DNA of 64,000 nucleotides from Escherichia phage PSD2001: the sequence record OK254198.1; one strand, given 5' to 3'. Made by a program: the position numbers and the translations under genes. The stretch's first letter is position 1, and each line of letters begins with the position of its first letter. Positions 3,296 to 62,749 of the stretch are shown in pieces. The notes beneath the pieces were generated by a model. That model saw nothing but the letters and a program-made list of their open reading frames with translations. It was not told where the DNA came from and ran no database searches.

Positions 3296-3647
3296 AAGTT
3301 GCTTTAATCAATGCAATGACTTCCGCAGCATTTTTGTGATTGACTTGCACATGAATGGTTTGGGTATCAACATCAGGAGCATCGCCATCAACTTCCAGGA
3401 AGTGGCGGAATTCACTTTCAGAGAGTTCAAAATAATCATCAGCTCCATCGCTATTCAGGATGGTACCATCTTTCATTTCAACTTTTTCAACAAAATAATC
3501 ACCTTCAATATAACACATATCCAGGACTTTGAAGGAATTACCATGTTGTTCCATCAACTTGACCATACACGAATTAGATTTAGGATTTTCTTTAATGAAA
3601 CGTTTTTTGGCAGCAGGGTCTAATACGTAAAATTTACCAGTTTCCAT
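3285..3647 (-). CDS. hypothetical protein (120 aa), paralog of 3994..4356
   Basis: Start moved to internal Met with GAGGA RBS; shares the DDYFELSE.EF motif and C-terminal helix with 3994..4356. Confidence 0.6.
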   Translation of the reverse strand: METGKFYVLDPAAKKRFIKENPKSNSCMVKLMEQHGNSFKVLDMCYIEGDYFVEKVEMKDGTILNSDGADDYFELSESEFRHFLEVDGDAPDVDTQTIHVQVNHKNAAEVIALIKATFGV

Positions 3648-3704
3648 TTTAATTTCCTCATATTCAATTGGGAACATATTATCATGTTCCCGTTGGTTTG
3701 TATA

Positions 3705-3932
3705 CTAAGCTTCAATCAAATTCATATAAAATTCAGCGTCTTCCGGGTGCATCCCTTCGCAATACTCATCAGCCATAAAGCGGGTAAGGTCTTCAAGAGG
3801 ACCTTGGACTTCAATTTGCATACTACAGAATTGCTTATCTTTAATGTAAGTCATGCACAAAGAAGGATAACGATTGCGAATAACTTCGTAAGTGTATTCA
3901 AAATCAACGATATCAATATTAACCTTAGCCAT
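3705..3932 (-). CDS. hypothetical protein (75 aa)
   Basis: ORF track; early promoter cassette upstream. Confidence 0.5.
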
Positions 3933-3959
3933 TTTATTTTCCTCATGTAGTTGATAGGT

Positions 3960-3995
3960 CTATAGTATCTCAACCATAGACCCTTGTAAACTGCT
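3960..3995 (-). promoter_or_regulatory. early promoter (-35 GTTTACA)
   Basis: Plus-strand ttgtaaac with -10-like element ~16 nt away; upstream of 3705..3932. Confidence 0.5.
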
Positions 3996-4356
3996 ATTTG
4001 AAAGCTTTTTGTAGAAGTTCAATGATTTGGTCAACGTTATTAGCATCCACAACACAATTAATAGAAACCGCACCTGAAGGTGTTTTTGCATAACTAGAGT
4101 ATTCACGGAAGCAATAAAACTCTTCTTCACTAAGTTCAAAATAATCATCGCCCATACCATCATCATTATAGATTGCACCATTAGCACAAATGATTTCGGT
4201 TACATAATCATAGCCGTCTGCACTTGATATTGATTTAACTTCAAACCAACCGCCATTTTCTTGGATGATGTCGACCATACCAGCATTCGATGAACTAATA
4301 TCAATGAAAGATTTAATACGATGTGGATTGAACTCATATTTTTTGCCGATTTCCAT
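3994..4356 (-). CDS. hypothetical protein (120 aa), paralog of 3285..3647
   Basis: ORF track; shared motif with 3285..3647; early promoter cassette upstream. Confidence 0.6.
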   Translation of the reverse strand: MEIGKKYEFNPHRIKSFIDISSSNAGMVDIIQENGGWFEVKSISSADGYDYVTEIICANGAIYNDDGMGDDYFELSEEEFYCFREYSSYAKTPSGAVSINCVVDANNVDQIIELLQKAFK

Positions 4357-4466: not shown

Positions 4467-5378
4467 TTAAAGGCCAGCCAGAAGGTCGTCAAGACCATCA
4501 TCAGAAGGCTCTGGAGTGCTTGGAGCAGTCGCAGTGCGTTCAGACTTAGCAGGTTTGCTGGAAGTGAAGTCTTCCATATCTTTATCAAAATCGTCCAGGT
4601 CAGCACCCAGTTTATCGGCTTGCGCAGCAGCTTTAGAAGCAGCACCACCGAGAGCAGCTGTACCCATTACTTTAGAGAATTTCTTCTGATTCTCTTCAAG
4701 AGATTTAAATACCAGCAATTCATTCAGGTCAGACATTTCGTCCCAAAGTTTTTTCTGGAATGCTTCATCATTGATGCCAGCGATTTCAGACTGGTTCATG
4801 AATTTGGAATCATCGTAGTTTTTATAATTGGAAACCATTTTAGATTTCAGTACGAAGTTCGCACCTTCAAAAGGACAGGTTACATCAACAGCTGTTTCGC
4901 CCATGTCAACATCGACTTCAACCATCTGGTTGATTTTGTCCATGATTTTCTTACCAAAGCGATATTTGAATACTTGACCTTCGTTAGACGGAACTGCAGG
5001 GTCTTTAATGACCAGGATGTTAGCCCAGTAAGAAGTATTACGCTTCAGTTTACGATATTCGGATTCGTTTGTATTGTACAGGTCATTCTTATTCATGTAC
5101 GCACACACAGGGCAGTTTTCATAATCGCCGTGAGTAGAAGTACAGTTTTCAATATACCATTGACCAGCATTTTTAAAGCCGTGGTTAACGAGCTTGATGA
5201 ATGGAGATGGATTTTCTTCATTCTTAGAAGGCAGGAAACGAATAACCGCAGAGCCGACGCCATCAGTATCTTTCAGTTTCCATTCTTTTTTATCGTCAGA
5301 AGAGAAACCAGAACCACCTTTAAGAGCGTTAAGGGAAGCAGCCAGGTCAGCAGGGTTTTTACGTTTAAACATAGACAT
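4467..5378 (-). CDS. 32: single-stranded DNA-binding protein gp32
   Basis: 303 aa; [23 protein letters not shown]...; Zn-binding Cys/His cluster; acidic C-terminus; terminator hairpin immediately downstream. Confidence 0.95.
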
Positions 5379-5438
5379 ATGATTTTCCTTAGATTATTTG
5401 ATTTTTAGCAGTTGTTTTGATTACGTATTAATTATACT

Positions 5439-42164: not shown

Positions 42165-42172
42165 TATTTATA
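42165..42172 (-). promoter_or_regulatory. late promoter (TATAAATA) for soc
   Basis: Reverse complement TATAAATA ~30 nt upstream of the soc ATG. Confidence 0.65.
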
Positions 42173-42174
42173 AC

Positions 42175-42456
42175 TTACAATTTGGCGGCTTGGACTGCTT
42201 TATTGGCTTCAGTCATTTTAGCTAGATTTTCAGCAGTAGGATTGACAATGTATTCGGCTGTAGCTTGAGCAAAAACATTATGAGTTTCGATTACATTTTT
42301 AGCATTTTCAATATTCATATCAATTTCTTGTTTAGATAAATTTTTTAGTTGATTGGCTAAGAGTTCTACAAAGATTTCAACATTAGCGTTTTCAATTATA
42401 TCATTAATATGCTTCTTACGAGCTTTCTTAAGCTGACGTTTATTTAAACGAGGCAT
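42175..42456 (-). CDS. hypothetical protein (93 aa)
   Basis: ORF track; start overlaps the gene 56 stop. Confidence 0.5.
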   Translation of the reverse strand: MPRLNKRQLKKARKKHINDIIENANVEIFVELLANQLKNLSKQEIDMNIENAKNVIETHNVFAQATAEYIVNPTAENLAKMTEANKAVQAAKL

Positions 42457-42974
42457 TAATAACCTCGGTCCTGACGAGCAAAGTTCTCGGCATTTTTCAG
42501 GTAATACAGTTTAAAGATTTCTTCTGCAGTCAGTCCAAGACCATGGAACATATTTAGAACGAAATGTAGAATATCAATCATCTCGAATTTAATTTCTAGC
42601 TGGTCTTCAGGAGACAATTCATCAATACGACGATTACGGAATTCAGCATGTTGCGCTTTCCACGGCTTCCAGCAACTGGATGCGGCTTTCTCACCATTAG
42701 ACATGCCACCGAGCGAAGTCAGAAGTTCACGGAATTCGTCGTCAACATAATCTTTCTGGTTGCGAAGCCATGCAACAACATCGCCTGCGGTTGCCAATTC
42801 ATCTGGATGTGCGTTATATTCTGGTTTTTCTGTAGCCAGACGAACCTGCAAAGATTTCTGCATATCAAGCATAATCTGCAGAGGGTCATCATTGCCTTTT
42901 AGGACATCATTATACGCATCTTGCGCTTTATCAACACCAGCAATCAGTTGAGAACACTCGTTAAAATGAGCCAT
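42456..42974 (-). CDS. 56: dCTP pyrophosphatase (dCTPase/dUTPase, MazG-like) gp56
   Basis: 172 aa from Met with AAGGA RBS; size and position of T4 gp56; MazG-like helical pattern. Confidence 0.8.
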   Translation of the reverse strand: MAHFNECSQLIAGVDKAQDAYNDVLKGNDDPLQIMLDMQKSLQVRLATEKPEYNAHPDELATAGDVVAWLRNQKDYVDDEFRELLTSLGGMSNGEKAASSCWKPWKAQHAEFRNRRIDELSPEDQLEIKFEMIDILHFVLNMFHGLGLTAEEIFKLYYLKNAENFARQDRGY

Positions 42975-43058
42975 TATATTTTTCCTTATCAATTCATATT
43001 GTTTGTATGTTAATTATATCATATTGGTTTAAAGCATAAATACAAGAAAGGAGGATGT

Positions 43059-43256
43059 ATGCTCAAACTATCTAGTCTAATTCAAGCCATCAAAGGCAGT
43101 CGTAAGCGAACGATTCTGGTCCTTTCGATACTCTGTTTTGTTCTACTCTGGAATTTCATTGTTGCCCCTATTGCATTGACACATGGTGTTATATTACCAG
43201 TCGTCGCGCTCGAATCAGTTGTAGATGTTTCACTAGCATTAATCGGCCTTATATAG
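43059..43256 (+). CDS. small membrane protein (65 aa) on the opposite strand to its neighbours
   Basis: Strong AAGGAGG RBS; two hydrophobic helices; ATAAATA late-promoter-like motif ~30 nt upstream. Confidence 0.5.
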   Translation: MLKLSSLIQAIKGSRKRTILVLSILCFVLLWNFIVAPIALTHGVILPVVALESVVDVSLALIGLI

Positions 43257-43364
43257 GTGGAACTTACTGGTTGTGCCCATCGCTGCAACACAAGGGGTGC
43301 ACTTACCCCAGGTCACAATGGAACATATCCATTCCATCATCGGTTACTTTACCGGAATCCCTTC

Positions 43365-56498: not shown

Positions 56499-56532
56499 AT
56501 ATTTTCCTCATATTAGTTTCTACTTTGTACTC

Positions 56533-56550
56533 CATGGGGCCGGAGCCCCA
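56533..56550 (-). terminator. rho-independent terminator after gene 45
   Basis: atggggcCGGAgccccat + T-rich tail. Confidence 0.7.
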
Positions 56551-56554
56551 TTTA

Positions 56555-57250
56555 TTAATCTTGGAATTCGTGGCTAGAGCCTTGTTCCATTGCAATCACA
56601 TAGCTTGCTTGTGTACCTTCAAACTTCGTAGCAAATTTATCATCTTTCGCCCAAAGCATAACACGGTAATCAGCCGGAATCATTTTCATGTTCAGTTTGT
56701 TAATGATAAATTTGAACGCTGCATCGCCTTCGTAATCGCCACACACCAGGGAATACAATGGACGTGCTAATTCTTTATCTTCGAGCTGGTTATAACCATG
56801 GATAACAATCTTACCGTCTTTGTTGGTGATTGCAAAGGTGTCTAGAGACAAACCACCAGCCACACGCAGAAGCTGCTGCAGGTCACTGCCTTTCAGGTCG
56901 AAGATAACCTTAGCTACCGGGAAAGGAATCTTCTTAGCAGGAAACACGATAGTGCTCGGGTCTGCTGCAGGCCAGTGAATCGTTGAACGTTGGTCTTTGA
57001 TAATGATATTCGATGCATCTTCAGCCAGGGATACTTCAGCTTGGTCAGTTACCAGACCCAGGATACTTAAGAAGCCATTCAGGTCATAAATTGCAGCTTC
57101 AAAGTCGATTGTATCATTGATTTCAGATTCACCATATGACGCTCCAGTTACGGAACGAGTCAGGATGGTATTACCTGGCTTAAGCATAATGCCAGAGTAG
57201 ATAGAAGTGAAGTTTTTCAGAACTGCGATAGTGTCTTTAGAGAATTTCAT
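56555..57250 (-). CDS. 45: sliding clamp gp45
   Basis: 231 aa; matches T4 gp45 (...IYDLNGFL..L.LV.D.AE...WPAADPST.V.P...LQQLLRV...). Confidence 0.95.
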   Translation of the reverse strand: MKFSKDTIAVLKNFTSIYSGIMLKPGNTILTRSVTGASYGESEINDTIDFEAAIYDLNGFLSILGLVTDQAEVSLAEDASNIIIKDQRSTIHWPAADPSTIVFPAKKIPFPVAKVIFDLKGSDLQQLLRVAGGLSLDTFAITNKDGKIVIHGYNQLEDKELARPLYSLVCGDYEGDAAFKFIINKLNMKMIPADYRVMLWAKDDKFATKFEGTQASYVIAMEQGSSHEFQD

Positions 57251-57280
57251 TTAATTACCTTTTATTCAAATCAAAATTAA

Positions 57281-57712
57281 TTAAGCAACAACTGCCATTT
57301 GTTTGCGGATAGCTTCTGGAAGAGATTCAATATACTCTGGAAGTTGCGCAGCAATAATAGAACCAGCTTGCGCCAGATGGTCATCAGAGTTAACACAATA
57401 ATCATCTTCAAGACGTTCGGAACCGTCACGGTCGATAACCAGTTTAGCACCAGCAGCCAGTGAATCGTTGTAATGACGTTGCATCAGTTCAATCCACTTA
57501 TCAGATACATCAGTATCAATCACACCGTACAGCATGAATTTAACTTCTTGAGGAAGTGATTTCAAACGGGTGGCAGATACTTCATCACATGCCAGGACCC
57601 AGGATTTGCGGATGCGGTTTTGGTTATGTGGGTTAGCGTCGGTGCGGATGGTTTTAACTTGGATATCTTTAGCAGTTACGTTGTTCATAATATTCTCTCT
57701 ATTCATTATCAA
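57281..57712 (-). CDS. hypothetical protein (143 aa) in the T4 rpbA position (RNA polymerase binding protein A)
   Basis: Position between 45 and 46; sequence not verified from memory. Confidence 0.5.
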   Translation of the reverse strand: MIMNRENIMNNVTAKDIQVKTIRTDANPHNQNRIRKSWVLACDEVSATRLKSLPQEVKFMLYGVIDTDVSDKWIELMQRHYNDSLAAGAKLVIDRDGSERLEDDYCVNSDDHLAQAGSIIAAQLPEYIESLPEAIRKQMAVVA

Positions 57713-57931
57713 TTAATCAAAGTATTCATATGCAAACCAGGCATTGTGTCTGTTCGCGATTATTTTAACATATTCTTCACCGAAAGCGTTTTGTAAGTCA
57801 CGTTCAGTAACAAGGTGTTCATCTTTCGAAAAGGTATTAACTAACACATACCGTTTAATTTCAGGGACAGCCAGTAAATGCTGCCCGGTTAAAAAATTGC
57901 TCATAAATAATATTATCCGTTGCAGTATCAA
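57713..57931 (-). CDS. hypothetical protein (72 aa), 45.2-like position
   Basis: ORF track. Confidence 0.5.
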   Translation of the reverse strand: MILQRIILFMSNFLTGQHLLAVPEIKRYVLVNTFSKDEHLVTERDLQNAFGEEYVKIIANRHNAWFAYEYFD

Positions 57932-58666
57932 ACAAGGGTCTGATATGAATTATAACATCATTTACCAAAAGCTTATTAGCAGAGCATTGAATCGCAAATT
58001 AACCACATACTCTGAAAGTCATCACATTATACCCCGTTGTATGGGTGGGGCAGACGATGCTTCAAATCTTGTTGATTTAACTCCCGAGGAACATTTCGTT
58101 TGTCATCAACTGTTGGTCAAAATGCATCCAAATAATGCTTCTTTGGTCTATGCCGCGCGCATGATGACAGTTTCCTCACCAAACGCCGACAGAAGCAAAA
58201 ACAAATTATTTGGATGGCTTCGTCGTAAAAACTTGGAAGCTCAACAAAATAAAATTTTCTCCGATGAAACCAGAAAGAAAATGTCAGAATCCGCCAAATT
58301 AAAACCGAGAGTTGAATGTCCACACTGTGGAAAAACCGGTCTCGTTGGCAATATGAATCGTTGGCATTTTGATAACTGTTCCAAAGGTCCAAACAAGGTT
58401 GTTCATACTATTCCAGAAAAACAAAAGCAAAAAATTTCAGTAGGATTAAAACAAGCTAAACATGAAATTTTAACTTGTGAATTTTGTGGTCTTGAAGGTA
58501 AAAAGTGTGTTATATCCACTCACCAACAATTCTGCAAATCCAATCCAAACCGGAAGAAAAAGGTGGACCCCAAAATTCAGTGTCCACATTGTAATGTAGT
58601 CGGTACGCCAGCCAATATGAAACGTTGGCATTTTGATAACTGCAAAATGAAGCCTCAATAAGAGGC
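57932..58666 (+). mobile_element. putative homing endonuclease insertion between 45.2 and 46
   Basis: Single oppositely oriented HNH gene filling an intergenic slot in a conserved replication gene block; boundaries inferred. Confidence 0.5.
57945..58661 (+). CDS. free-standing HNH homing endonuclease (mob-like) with tandem zinc-binding repeats
   Basis: 238 aa from internal Met; HNH motif SHHIIPRCMGGADDASNLVDLTPEEHFVCH; repeats CPHCGKTGLVGNMNRWHFDNC / CPHCNVVGTPANMKRWHFDNC; opposite strand to all neighbours. Confidence 0.8.
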   Translation: MNYNIIYQKLISRALNRKLTTYSESHHIIPRCMGGADDASNLVDLTPEEHFVCHQLLVKMHPNNASLVYAARMMTVSSPNADRSKNKLFGWLRRKNLEAQQNKIFSDETRKKMSESAKLKPRVECPHCGKTGLVGNMNRWHFDNCSKGPNKVVHTIPEKQKQKISVGLKQAKHEILTCEFCGLEGKKCVISTHQQFCKSNPNRKKKVDPKIQCPHCNVVGTPANMKRWHFDNCKMKPQ

Positions 58667-60349
58667 TCATTCCAGAACAGTAAATCGACCGACTTTTTTC
58701 ATTTGAAGATGCTGCCCATATGCTTCTGGGTCGTGTTCACGATGGCTAATGATAAACACGTTTTGACCTTCCAATTTATTAATAATTGCCTGGATAGCTT
58801 TGATGCCTTCGGCGTCAGTGGCTGAATCCATGACCTCATCCAGAATCAACGTACTAATTTGCACACCAGATACTTTCGCAGCAATATCACGCCATGTAAA
58901 CAGCAATGCAATATCGATACGAGCTTTTTCGCCCTGGCTAAATGATGCATAGCTGAAGTCTTCACGTCCACGAGATTTAATCGTTTCGTTGAACTCTTCA
59001 TCTAACGTAAAACTATAATCAGCTTCCATAACTTTAAGGTAAGCGTTTATCTGCTTATTAAAGATAGGAATATATTTCTTAATAATCGCACCTTTGATAC
59101 CAGAATCTTTCAACATATCCGTTAGGATGCCACGTTGATATTTTTCCATCACAAGGTCAGATTTCTGTTTGACTATTTTATCAAGCTGGTCTTGAAGCAT
59201 TTTAATGTCTGCTGCATGGTCAATAAATTCTGACTTAGCTTGCTCGATTAATGCTTTAACCTTTTTAGCCTTTTCAACAGTCTGGACTAAGGTTTGTTTC
59301 TTAGTTTGAATGTCTTGGGCTATTGTACGCTGGTTTTGTCTTGCAGCAGAATACGTATCAAATTGCTCCTGAACAGCATTCTGACGAGCTTTATGCTTAT
59401 CAGCTGATGCATTACATTCTTCAATCTTTGACTCAATCCTGGCGACAATGGGGTCTCCTGGATGCAACTGACTGGCACAAGTCTGACAGCAACCACCTTT
59501 CTCGTACAGACCAACAACCTTTCGGTAATCGTCAATCTTCGATTTAATCAGGAATGATTCCTGCTTTAACTTCGTGAGTTCATGCTCAGGGTCTTCTCCC
59601 AAGATTATCTCGGTCAGTCTTGTCGTTGCTTCTTCGATAGTCGTTTTGATTCCACGTGCTTCCGTGGCAAGTTCATCATACATCGTTTGCAGCCGCAACA
59701 GATTATCACCTGATAATTTTCTTTGACGGTCTTCGTTGTCCTGATAGATTTTAATCTGTTGAACAATACCATCATGCTGCACATCCATCACCTGGATTTG
59801 ACTATTGACTTCGCGGATAAGAGATTTGTTCAGCTTATCCATATCGGCCAGTACAGAAACCTCTAAAAGGTCTTCGACAAGTTTTCTTCTTGCAGGAGTG
59901 GATAGGCCCATAAAAGGGGTATATCCAGCTGTGCCGAGTACGACAATCTGTTTGAAGCTTGCATAGGACATTCCGATAAGCTGTTCAAATTCTGCTTGGA
60001 AGTCTTTACTGCTGGCAGATTCATCAAGACGTTTACCGCCACAAGAGATTTCAAAAACATTGGGTTTTTGCCCGCGTTTGATATAGTATTCTTTTCCATC
60101 ATATTCCATCCACAATTCAACGAGCATATCTTTTTTGTTGCTCGAGTTAATCAACTGGCCTTTCTTTACATCACGGAAAGGCTTACCGAACATAGCAAAG
60201 GTAACCGCTTCAAGGAACGTAGATTTACCCGCACCATTCTTACCGGTGACCAGAGTTTTTTGGACTTTATCCAGTTCAACAGTAATCGGTTGAGCACCAA
60301 CCGACATAATATTTTTATAGATAACTTTCTTAAGCTTAAAAGTCTTCAC
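58667..60349 (-). CDS. 46: recombination endonuclease subunit gp46 (Rad50/SbcC-like ATPase)
   Basis: 560 aa; Walker A GKNGAGKSTFLEA; coiled-coil middle; same length as T4 gp46. Confidence 0.95.
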   Translation of the reverse strand: MKTFKLKKVIYKNIMSVGAQPITVELDKVQKTLVTGKNGAGKSTFLEAVTFAMFGKPFRDVKKGQLINSSNKKDMLVELWMEYDGKEYYIKRGQKPNVFEISCGGKRLDESASSKDFQAEFEQLIGMSYASFKQIVVLGTAGYTPFMGLSTPARRKLVEDLLEVSVLADMDKLNKSLIREVNSQIQVMDVQHDGIVQQIKIYQDNEDRQRKLSGDNLLRLQTMYDELATEARGIKTTIEEATTRLTEIILGEDPEHELTKLKQESFLIKSKIDDYRKVVGLYEKGGCCQTCASQLHPGDPIVARIESKIEECNASADKHKARQNAVQEQFDTYSAARQNQRTIAQDIQTKKQTLVQTVEKAKKVKALIEQAKSEFIDHAADIKMLQDQLDKIVKQKSDLVMEKYQRGILTDMLKDSGIKGAIIKKYIPIFNKQINAYLKVMEADYSFTLDEEFNETIKSRGREDFSYASFSQGEKARIDIALLFTWRDIAAKVSGVQISTLILDEVMDSATDAEGIKAIQAIINKLEGQNVFIISHREHDPEAYGQHLQMKKVGRFTVLE

Positions 60350-60564
60350 AAAAGATTCCTTTTAATGTATCTTTTAGACCATTCTATCATATCATCATAA
60401 TCTAAAAAGCATTCATCAAATTCAGCCATGCAAACCACTCCCTGCGCCGTTTTTGATGTGATATAAATTATTCCGACATATCTCGAATCTTCTTCGGTAT
60501 AATCAATATTTGCTACAAATTCATCATCAAGATTAAATTCAAAAGTCTTCATCATAATAAGCAT
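60346..60564 (-). CDS. hypothetical protein (72 aa), 46.1-like
   Basis: ORF track. Confidence 0.5.
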   Translation of the reverse strand: MLIMMKTFEFNLDDEFVANIDYTEEDSRYVGIIYITSKTAQGVVCMAEFDECFLDYDDMIEWSKRYIKRNLL

Positions 60565-60802
60565 CCTTGATGCATGATTCAGCCATATGAATTAATGTCT
60601 CTGGGGTATCATCTTCCATTACATTAAAGCTAAATTCTACGGCCCAATCGGTGACTACATAGACTTTGATAAGTTGACCGGTTTCCCGGTCAGTGATAGC
60701 TTCAAACCAATACTTAATAGTATTCGGTTGATTATCGTCGTCAACCACATCACATTCGCGGATATGTTCAAGACCCGCTTCATTAAAATCATAAAGTCTC
60801 AC
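60539..60802 (-). CDS. hypothetical protein (87 aa), 46.2-like
   Basis: ORF track. Confidence 0.5.
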   Translation of the reverse strand: MRLYDFNEAGLEHIRECDVVDDDNQPNTIKYWFEAITDRETGQLIKVYVVTDWAVEFSFNVMEDDTPETLIHMAESCIKDAYYDEDF

Positions 60803-61818
60803 GGTTGCACCTCAAGGTATAATTTGTTGGCCAATGCTTTGAGAGCTTTTGACTCTTTCTCATTGGCGTCAGGTAATGCATCGATATATTCTGCCATCAT
60901 ATCTGTTAAGCGTTTTATGTCTAACTCTTCATCAGAGTCTGATGTGTCAACACTGTTATCAACCTTATTGACAACACGCAATTCATGCACACGCTTTTCT
61001 AATTCAGATTCAAACTTGGTCAGGTCTTTATCGACTTTTTCTACAATAACACGGACTGATAAGTCTTTGAAGTCGTCGTAATTAATAGTTTCGTTTGGAT
61101 AGAAAATCTTCCGATGCCAGGTGGTTTCATTCGGAATAAATTTCATCTCTTCGGTTTCTGTATCAAATTCCCAGAATCCGCGCGGGTCATTCTCATCACC
61201 TGCTGTTAATGTCCATGGTGTCCCGATGTACTTAACGTTTGCAGCTTCTGAAATTGTGTGGAAGTGACCAGACCAAACTTGCTTGTACTTCTTAAGGAAA
61301 TCAGGCTCAAGTCCGTGAGATTTCAATCCTTTATAGAAATAAAACCCAGTTAATTCCCAGTGACCGATGCAATATTCAGCCCCAGAAGTTTTGATGTGTT
61401 GATGAATGTCAGTTGCGTTCTCGTCGCACATCCATGGAATCATATCAATCTGGCAACCGTCAAAATCAACAGTCGTTGGCTTATCATAGATTTTAACATG
61501 GTCATACTTATTCAGGAGTTCGGTGATAGCATTAGGATGAATCTTATTCTTCAGATTCATGTCATGATTCCCGACTATCGTGTGCATAGTAATTCCTGCT
61601 TCACGAAGGAGTTCCATAATCTCACGGCTGAATTCCATCGTCTTATGCGTTACGGCCTTACGGACGTCAAAAATATCCCCATATTGAATCCAGACTTTAA
61701 TCCCATTCGCTTTGGAATATGCAATCGCTTGTAAAATACCATCGCGTTGAATGTTTTGAGCCCATGGGTCGTCAGCTTTGACACCTAAGTGCCAATCACC
61801 TAAATTTAAAATTTTCAT
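60799..61818 (-). CDS. 47: recombination endonuclease subunit gp47 (Mre11/SbcD-like)
   Basis: 339 aa from internal Met MKILNLGDWHLG (phosphoesterase motif I); GNHD motif. Confidence 0.93.
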   Translation of the reverse strand: MKILNLGDWHLGVKADDPWAQNIQRDGILQAIAYSKANGIKVWIQYGDIFDVRKAVTHKTMEFSREIMELLREAGITMHTIVGNHDMNLKNKIHPNAITELLNKYDHVKIYDKPTTVDFDGCQIDMIPWMCDENATDIHQHIKTSGAEYCIGHWELTGFYFYKGLKSHGLEPDFLKKYKQVWSGHFHTISEAANVKYIGTPWTLTAGDENDPRGFWEFDTETEEMKFIPNETTWHRKIFYPNETINYDDFKDLSVRVIVEKVDKDLTKFESELEKRVHELRVVNKVDNSVDTSDSDEELDIKRLTDMMAEYIDALPDANEKESKALKALANKLYLEVQP

Positions 61819-61958
61819 AAGCCAAGCACCGTTATCGCAATGCAAAATAAAATTACTGAAATGAACCCGTCAGGAGTAGAAAAGAATCCTATCCAACAAG
61901 CTCTTGTGAATGTGTAGAATGCCATGAATAACACGACATATCCTAAAAATAATTCCAT
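61815..61958 (-). CDS. small membrane protein (47 aa), translationally coupled to gene 47; not in ORF track
   Basis: GAGGAG RBS; stop overlaps the gp47 ATG; hydrophobic. Confidence 0.4.
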   Translation of the reverse strand: MELFLGYVVLFMAFYTFTRACWIGFFSTPDGFISVILFCIAITVLGL

Positions 61959-62027: not shown

Positions 62028-62189
62028 TCCAATTAATACACCGTACAGAGGTTCGTGAGAAGACCTGAACTTGATAGGCTTATAGGTAATAGTACCTTCA
62101 TTTTCTGCTTTAATGCGAGCGGCTTCAAATTGAAGAATCATCTCGTTTTTGTCAGATTTAATCTTATCAAAATCCATCGAATTCATCAT
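62016..62189 (-). CDS. hypothetical small protein (57 aa); not in ORF track
   Basis: Hand-translated; AAGAGG RBS; coordinates approximate (+/-1). Confidence 0.3.
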   Translation of the reverse strand: MMNSMDFDKIKSDKNEMILQFEAARIKAENEGTITYKPIKFRSSHEPLYGVLIGKEA

Positions 62190-62247
62190 TCATATAACCT
62201 CTTAAACTTTTTCGTATTCGTCGTTCATTAGCCTGCTGTCCATGTTA

Positions 62248-62454
62248 TCATCGTTGCCACCATTTCTTAAGTTGATGTGAGTCTACCCAAACTTTGGATG
62301 TCGGCTCAATTTTAACAATACCTTTTGGAACACCATAAGGGCCAAGGAGCTTACATTCGGTTTCGGTCTGCTTGATACAGATATCACCATATGAGCGAAA
62401 TCTGAAAGCGGCCCCTACACGAAGCCGCTTAAACGGTTTATTTACTAATGCCAT
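62248..62454 (-). CDS. hypothetical protein (68 aa)
   Basis: ORF track. Confidence 0.45.
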   Translation of the reverse strand: MALVNKPFKRLRVGAAFRFRSYGDICIKQTETECKLLGPYGVPKGIVKIEPTSKVWVDSHQLKKWWQR

Positions 62455-62749
62455 TTACGATTTCCCAAATTTGTTTGCGAGTAGTTTCCCACATCAACTT
62501 AATCAGGTCTTCCGTAACTGGTTGGCGGTAAATTCCACGCAGTTTAACTAAAGCATATTTGTATGCTTCAAAATTGTTTTCCAGCACTGCCCCTTGAGCA
62601 TGCTTATTCAGTCGTGCAATTTCACGAGCATTCTTTTTCAGAATCTTTGCTGCTTGACTCTGTGCTTCGAGTGCGTTCGCTTCTTCGAGACGTTCCTGTG
62701 CTTCTTCAATCTGCTTATCGGTCAGTTGAGAAATATCTGGAGCTTGCAT
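62438..62749 (-). CDS. hypothetical protein (103 aa)
   Basis: ORF track. Confidence 0.5.
   Translation of the reverse strand: MQAPDISQLTDKQIEEAQERLEEANALEAQSQAAKILKKNAREIARLNKHAQGAVLENNFEAYKYALVKLRGIYRQPVTEDLIKLMWETTRKQIWEIVNGISK

Follow-up and report, generated by a model that had tools for sequence, protein, structure and literature searches.

The window analyzed here is a 64,000-nt stretch of Escherichia phage PSD2001 (OK254198.1). On its minus strand gp45 (56555-57250) and rpbA (57281-57712), both recognized with Pfam, are followed by gene 45.2 (57713-57904; Pfam Gp45_2, 1.2e-23, and the annotation of phage P479), by gene 46, which encodes a Rad50/SbcC-like recombination nuclease subunit (58667-60349; PHROG 77, 1.9e-192; Pfam SMC_N), and by gp47 (60799-61845; Pfam and PHROG). 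Between gene 45.2 on the left and gene 46 on the right, an open reading frame on the plus strand runs from an ATG at 57945 to a TAA ending at 58661 and encodes 238 amino acids plus the stop. A first-pass annotation of this DNA had described it as a free-standing HNH homing endonuclease gene (HEG) inserted between 45.2 and 46 on the opposite strand, and this is borne out. The coordinates 57932-58666 given at the time do not delimit the coding sequence and hold only for the gap between the flanking reading frames. The gene had also been called the sole opposite-strand gene of its surroundings; judged by the annotation of the 98%-identical P479, about 21 kb indeed pass without another. Over the region of the HEG, the window is 96-98% identical to the Gaprivervirus phages P479, DK-13, MN01, Yersinia phage P8 and TH15 (Straboviridae, T4-like).

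The HEG is intergenic, and the flanking genes 45.2 and 46 are both intact. An Rfam scan of positions 56500-60500 returned no match, group I introns included. With no group I intron present and both neighbors uninterrupted, an intron-encoded HNH enzyme of the I-HmuI or I-TevIII type is ruled out. Within the window the HEG has no paralogues, the only similarity being its own internal repeat.

The N-terminal part of the protein holds a ββα-metal HNH catalytic core at residues 21-57 (58005-58115, plus strand), delineated by alignment to the McrA and Cas8-HNH motifs and by the structural model, with H26, H27, N41, H50 and H54 as its key positions. The canonical HNH motif reported earlier is present as SHHIIPRCMGGADDASNLVDLTPEEHFVCH at residues 25-54, and H26/H27, N41 and H50 line up with the residues that carry out catalysis in McrA and Cas8-HNH. 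A check for loss of catalytic residues found none: the HNH-core residues are unchanged in an alignment of six homologues, and H26/H27, N41 and H50 are invariant in 69. The protein matches PHROG 655 ‘homing endonuclease’ with E = 8e-67, has 3985 database homologues and is 100% identical to proteins of P479 (‘homing endonuclease’) and DK-13 (‘putative homing endonuclease’). BLASTP aligns residues 2-118 with T4 MobB (P13329) at 44% identity (E = 3e-29). ORF054w of phage RB32, annotated ‘similar to mobB’ and situated at the same locus, is 60% identical over the whole protein; RB32 has been credited with two mob-like HNH genes (PMC2993671). The Pfam HNH model (PF01844) scores 16.8 bits on the full protein and 19.7 bits (E = 9.5e-4) on the isolated domain, both below the gathering threshold of 21.4, and NCBIfam yielded no family at threshold. 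In the PDB, a sequence search gave weak matches limited to the HNH motif (best E = 0.08), and I-HmuI was not significantly matched.

We modeled the protein with AlphaFold2 on the 69-sequence alignment and obtained a pLDDT of 92. The model reads, from the N-terminus, as a ββα nuclease core (strands 24-27 and 42-45, helix 47-60), a helical region, two successive helix-finger units and a last finger. Foldseek against viral models (BFVD) retrieved T4 MobB at 1.1e-10 and MobC at 1.9e-8. Against the PDB nothing scored below 1e-3, the top weak matches being finger arrays of TRAF, Cep104 and CTCF together with HNH domains; in this modeled comparison such weak matches are suggestive of the fold only. 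By its likeness to MobB in sequence and predicted structure, the HEG product is a member of the Mob class. The gene is under purifying selection (dN/dS 0.05-0.21), and the 717-nt reading frame is intact in all nine orthologues examined. A chance, antisense or mis-called frame that yields no product has nothing in its favor beyond the many shadow reading frames of this AT-rich window. Against it stand the PHROG match, the thousands of homologues, the selection and the confident model, and the frame moreover occupies inserted DNA that is absent from relatives. A chance frame or pseudogene is practically inconceivable and was rejected on the homology and selection evidence.

The C-terminal part of the protein is predicted to be a DNA-binding arm of two helix-plus-finger units and a third C2HC finger. 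The first unit opens with a NUMOD3-like helix at residues 102-118 (58248-58298, plus strand; NKIFSDETRKKMSESAK; model helix 107-119), which Pfam NUMOD3 (PF07460) scores at 17.0 bits (E = 0.006; gathering threshold 20.4); the same Pfam entry is precomputed on many homologues of the protein. It is followed by zinc finger 1 (C125, C128, H141, C145; 58317-58379), assigned from the sequence and folded as ββα in the model, which is kept in orthologues at the gene-46 locus and missing from T4 MobB. The second unit begins with a linker helix at residues 156-172 (58410-58460; IPEKQKQKISVGLKQAK; model helix 158-170). A Pfam scan of this helix gave no match and the helix is deduced from the internal repeat, so that it is called NUMOD3-like by position only. 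Finger 2 (C178, C181, H193, C197; 58476-58535), with a CEFC..H..C pattern, is degenerate and was placed from sequence, orthologue conservation and the model. Finger 3 (C213, C216, H229, C233; 58581-58643; sequence and model) closes the protein. All four of its ligands are invariant in the 69-sequence alignment, and it scores 17 bits with the Pfam C2HC finger model, below the cut-off of 27. All these elements are encoded on the plus strand.

Two tandem Cys/His repeats and a third, degenerate one had been read from the sequence earlier. The near-identical CPHC..NMxRWHFDNC copies are there, at C125-C145 and C213-C233, as is the degenerate one, which however sits between the two good copies, so that these are not strictly tandem. 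Nor is the repeat-type arm unusual, as had been thought. A search with the C-terminal 134 residues retrieved 304 phage records, 177 of them with the full three-finger module, and single units recur in many other phage HNH endonucleases, which makes the module a common one. Among the matches listed, nearly all three-finger records adjoin gene 46; the carriers include Tequatrovirus, Mosigvirus, Dhakavirus and Gaprivervirus as well as T4-like phages of Cronobacter, Klebsiella and Enterobacter. Isolated units of one helix and one finger are found in ‘MobE-like’ endonucleases encoded by Felixounavirus-type phages of Salmonella and Escherichia, and also in Vibrio phages and numerous environmental viral contigs. 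The Mob class has already been described as an HNH domain with a C-terminal zinc finger (PMC10448857). Compared with T4 MobB, which lacks these three fingers, the triple array is a trait of the gene-46 group itself.

The HEG appears to have expression signals of its own. A T4 late-promoter-like box, CATAAATA, lies at 57902-57909 on the plus strand and matches TATAAATA at 7 of 8 positions; the box opens with three bases complementary to the 45.2 start codon. In FB, MX01, ST0 and RB32, a perfect TATAAATA is found at the equivalent position, 35-50 nt ahead of the ATG, and the box in the window is a putative promoter. A Shine-Dalgarno-like AAGGG (57934-57938, plus strand) precedes the ATG by 6 nt. 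At the other end, a hairpin (58646-58671) extends over the stop codons at which the HEG and gene 46 converge, with fold energies of -14.1 kcal/mol on the plus and -19.7 kcal/mol on the minus strand (z = -4.2 and -4.6; none of 200 shuffles folds as well). The hairpin is kept in P8, FB, MX01 and ST0 and probably serves as a terminator or RNA-stabilizer. A scan for sigma-70 promoters and terminators found nothing above chance. A hairpin over the ribosome-binding site, as in mobE or I-TevI, was also considered and rejected, the fold there being no better than shuffled sequence (z = 0.42). The free-standing T4 endonucleases generally have middle or late promoters (PMC2988022), and by analogy late HEG expression antisense to the early/middle cluster would fit what is known of them.

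Close relatives without the gene reveal its sporadic distribution. Among about 27 distinct listed Gapriverviruses, the HEG is found in 5 and absent from 22; an empty 34-nt spacer was verified in SP18, P896, VR20, UPEC07 and VR26, and the other HEG-less calls are deduced from the same 79-80% query coverage. Comparison with the HEG-less relatives defines an inserted segment of 762 nt (57905-58666) in place of the 34-nt 45.2/46 spacer. Universal presence at this locus, named earlier as a finding that would speak against a mobile gene, was checked for in the 45.2/46 interval and does not hold. The same locus is occupied in the same orientation in several T4-like genera by orthologues of 42-77% identity. 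Of these, RB32 ORF054w and its counterparts in RB33, MX01, Bp7, IME281, FB, ST0, F2, Cronobacter phage GAP161 and others also share the length of 238 amino acids and, at 60-77% full-length identity, the arrangement of HNH domain, two helix-finger units and third finger. They have in common with the window gene, in addition, the upstream late-promoter box and an adjoining divergent gene-46 tract. No experimental characterization of these RB32-type 45.2/46 orthologues was found in the searchable literature. The window allele represents a lineage of its own: apart from the five Gapriverviruses, FB has the allele nearest to it (77% amino-acid identity), and the gene-46 tract linked to the window allele matches no sampled phage.

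Delimited by alignments, this tract (58667-58862, minus strand) takes in the final 65 codons of gene 46, starting at Walker B and running past the H-loop to the stop codon. Over its 196 nt, the carriers differ from four HEG-less Gapriverviruses at 48-55 positions (~27%), including 14 amino-acid changes, and from one another at 4 positions at most (2% or less), with a background divergence of 2-4%. Its identity to every other allele sampled is 62-74%. Since this is the level found between genera, the tract must have arrived with the HEG from an unsampled lineage. In a search for the donor, an exact 29-mer had no match in IMG/VR, and a protein-guided IMG/VR scan found only known or distant relatives. 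On the other side of the gene, a short divergent stretch marks the 5' end of 45.2 (57891-57904, minus strand), where the aligned proteins read MSNFL in carriers and MADFL in HEG-less phages. The divergence of the flanks is thus asymmetric, with about 14 nt on the 45.2 side and 196-280 nt on the gene-46 side. Just past the tract, the window is nearest to the HEG-less SP18 and P896 and DK-13 is nearest to the HEG-less UPEC07; in the left flank, P8 is nearest to UPEC07 and TH15 to VR20. Because the carriers fail to group beyond the tract, the cassette must sit on different genomic backgrounds. Across these backgrounds the HEG is strictly linked to the foreign 196-nt gene-46 tract, in a presence/absence polymorphism with a clear gene-conversion footprint.

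A like signature exists in Tequatrovirus and Dhakavirus. Between RB32 and T4, a HEG-adjacent tract of about 270 nt is 76-88% identical in a background of 99%; between MX01 or FB and JS10, a tract of about 280 nt is 59-82% identical in a background of about 95%. In Mosigvirus, the carrier ST0 and the HEG-less RB69 show no divergent tract, their gene-46 ends being 96-99% identical, which indicates that a diverged tract is not needed for coexistence.

One tract boundary is common to all five Gaprivervirus carriers, which agrees with one import and ordinary recombination thereafter. The gene may accordingly be a stranded or domesticated former HEG, brought into Gaprivervirus once by an illegitimate or homeologous recombination event that also carried in the gene-46 end, and now inherited vertically and shuffled by ordinary homologous exchange. 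Such a gene may no longer home, or may serve the phage otherwise, for example as a weapon against co-infection or as a DNA-binding regulator. The five carriers, with exactly one boundary and nearly one cassette, agree with this; T4-like phages recombine heavily anyway, as seen in their mosaic identity profiles, ST0 and RB69 coexist while sharing a single gene-46 allele, and several T4 Mob genes were never shown to be active (Table 1, PMC2988022). The low dN/dS and the invariant catalytic residues nevertheless argue, at the level of sequence, for a working nuclease, and the HEG-adjacent tract is observed independently in three genera. Moreover, the locus is filled in at least four sequenced genera that were examined directly, and further orthologues adjoin gene 46 in phages of Cronobacter, Klebsiella and Enterobacter. 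Given that most relatives do without the gene, so wide an occupation would be hard to maintain without some drive, and we consider a stranded gene improbable.

The evidence favors the interpretation, to which we assign a probability of about 85%, that the reading frame is a free-standing HEG of the T4 Mob class, with an N-terminal HNH (His-Me finger) nuclease and a C-terminal modular DNA-binding arm, that homes as follows. The HEG would be transcribed late, starting at a late-type promoter of its own and running antisense to the early/middle replication genes. In a mixed infection, the enzyme would nick or cut the HEG-less allele, either within the terminal 200-280 bp of gene 46 or where 45.2 meets gene 46. 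Recombination-dependent phage repair would then copy the HEG from the carrier genome along with adjoining gene-46 sequence, and the carrier copy would be protected by the diverged gene-46 tract, by the insertion itself or by both. Enzymatic activity, late expression and present-day mobility are what we infer for the HEG. The searchable literature holds no reports of cleavage, nicking or biased inheritance for this protein or its orthologues. The precedent is MobE, which nicks nrdB of the HEG-less T2 with co-conversion of flanking sequence (PMC2790892). Points that weigh against this interpretation include the imperfect promoter box of the window, the Pfam HNH and NUMOD3 scores short of threshold, the ST0/RB69 pair and the boundary shared by all five carriers.

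As to where the enzyme would act, the linked 196-nt tract gives indirect support, from sequence comparison, to the neighboring gene 46 as the probable target, and we favor its last 200-280 bp as the predicted site. This preference is based on the asymmetry of the flanks, on the unconserved spacer and on the fact that the characterized free-standing T4 endonucleases act inside a flanking gene (PMC2988022). The block of gene 46 that is conserved most strongly, TTTACATGGCGTGATATTGC, codes for LFTWRDIA, and in all three genera the tracts end right beside it. There are two possible reasons for this: either the break falls within or close to this stretch, as the case of MobE would suggest, or the block is simply where homology resumes for crossovers. 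MobE itself binds a conserved block and nicks adjacent polymorphic sequence (PMC2790892). Across four genera, no nucleotide of the gene-46 tract separates all carrier from all HEG-less alleles, and a precise cleavage site is therefore not predicted.

Alternatively, the target could be the 45.2/46 junction, a site split by the insertion, with the gene-46 tract merely passively co-converted donor sequence. The insertion point is identical in every genus examined, the only differences between ST0 and RB69 are at the junction and in the final codons of gene 46, and the tract stops where strong conservation first sets in, as crossovers dependent on homology would be expected to do. The spacer, however, varies between genera: it measures 34 nt in SP18 and about 55 nt in T4, and in JS10 the two genes overlap by 4 nt, which makes a conserved target at the junction unlikely. 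The characterized free-standing T4 endonucleases, MobE among them, cut or nick within the conserved gene beside them and at a distance from the insertion point (PMC2790892, PMC2988022), and the divergence of a mere 14 nt or so toward 45.2, set against 196-280 nt toward gene 46, also speaks against the junction. We regard a junction target as a serious but less likely alternative and retain the end of gene 46 as the favored site. A more specific proposal, offered as speculation, is that the group represents an uncharacterized Mob specificity class, in which the three C2HC fingers would read the conserved ATPase-motif stretch of gene 46 (signature motif to Walker B) and the C-terminal 65-90 codons (Walker B, D-loop, H-loop) of this essential recombination protein would be swapped for a foreign version at each crossing between genera. 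If so, the HEG would be a recurrent driver of modular gp46 allele exchange, and a compact HNH nickase programmable through its fingers might be derived from it.

Among known systems, T4 MobB is similar in having a homologous HNH domain of about 120 residues with the same catalytic residues, and in standing free between conserved genes. It differs in its locus (alpha-gt/alpha-gt.2), in lying on the same strand as its neighbors and in a C-terminal region without the three C2HC fingers; its activity and target are likewise unestablished (PMC2988022). T4 MobE, likened here by its description, is another Mob-class HNH enzyme whose gene stands free beside a conserved gene (PMC2790892). It serves as the model for the mechanism, with a site-specific nick in the HEG-less flanking gene, co-conversion of the flank and a carrier protected by polymorphisms beside a conserved block (PMC2790892). 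It differs from the window gene in that mobE lacks a separate promoter, shares the strand of its neighbors and is limited by an internal terminator, and in that its targets are nrdB and nrdA. I-HmuI and other NUMOD-bearing HNH homing endonucleases, which nick DNA, resemble the window protein in that the HNH domain is followed by an extended modular DNA-binding arm (PMC5714182), whereas I-HmuI is intron-encoded, belongs to a different His-Me group (HNH_3) and lacks a C2HC finger array.

The gene is already known, being annotated at 100% identity, and its orthologue group has been noted since the RB32 genome. Annotation is unaffected by our results: the nearest relatives already carry the correct label for the gene, and surveys of T4-like genomes have listed the class from 2006-2010 at the latest. 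The value of the locus is modest and lies in a clean natural case of intronless homing, with empty and filled sites, a sharp 196-nt foreign tract and one cassette on different backgrounds. It also provides a defined interval of 200-280 bp in which to seek the target of a Mob-type enzyme, and the probable target gene encodes part of a nuclease thought to process breaks during homing.

Finally, SegF beside gene 56 and SegG beside gene 32 are encoded, like the window HEG, by free-standing genes next to a conserved gene, and both show localized marker exclusion and co-conversion of part of the neighboring gene (PMC2988022). They are GIY-YIG enzymes, while the window HEG encodes an HNH enzyme. At gene 56 the window itself offers the mirror case, as it carries the HEG-less allele relative to P479.

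The Dhakavirus JS10, which lacks the Mob-type HNH homing endonuclease gene (HEG), shows a 4-nt overlap of genes 46 and 45.2 (positions 5397-5400 of its locus), a layout characteristic of translationally coupled genes. Dhakaviruses that carry the HEG have a 0.7-kb antisense insert between 46 and 45.2, so the insertion must have altered the mode in which 45.2 is translated. The GAGG Shine-Dalgarno sequence of 45.2 in SP18, a HEG-less Gaprivervirus, is missing from 45.2 of the window. At the other end of the insert, the HEG and gene 46 converge, and a hairpin spans both stop codons (window 58646-58671). The structure is stable and conserved (z about -4.4), with one arm formed by the final codons of the HEG and the other by a 5-nt spacer plus the gene-46 stop. 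This hairpin may act as a cassette-borne bidirectional terminator or RNA-end stabiliser.

Comparison with P479, a Gaprivervirus 98% identical to the window, revealed the mirror image of the 45.2/46 site in the gene 56/dCTPase region (window 42172-43264): here the window has the HEG-less allele and P479 the HEG. The P479 gene adjoining gene 56, absent from the window, is a SegF-like GIY-YIG homing endonuclease. Next to it, the window and P479 are 82.7% identical over ~810 nt (42453-43264 of the window), compared with 97.6-97.7% in the flanks.

Some relatives carry an additional gene in the gap between genes 44 and 45. Both VR20_051 (positions 3422-4012 of the VR20 locus) and MX01_51 (1997-2563 of the MX01 locus) match PHROG 314, 'homing endonuclease', at 2e-17 and 9e-16, respectively, while the NUMOD3 match is sub-threshold. 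The PHROG 314-type gene is missing from the counterpart of this site in the window (~56499-56554). The replication block thus offers several alternative endonuclease insertion sites.

A gene annotated as 'putative DNA endonuclease' lies between gp45 and rpbA in VR26 (VR26_053, positions 1246-1878 of its locus) and in TH15 (4749-5378). The two copies encode 210 aa and share 99% amino acid identity; searches of Pfam and PHROG gave no match. TH15 combines this gene and the Mob-type gene in one genome. The window is without the 210-aa gene, the equivalent site lying at ~57251-57280.

Between gp47 and a-gt.2, a divergent stretch of ~400 nt (window 62100-62500) shows 84-92% identity to six of the seven Gapriverviruses compared, against a background of ~97%; the exception is P896, with 94-97%. 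The stretch is a local mosaic patch. A further presence/absence polymorphism is found 1.7 kb from the HEG: the window shares gene 46.1, a small DUF5487-type ORF (window 60346-60564), with VR20, UPEC07, DK-13 and P8, and the gene is missing from SP18, P896 and TH15.
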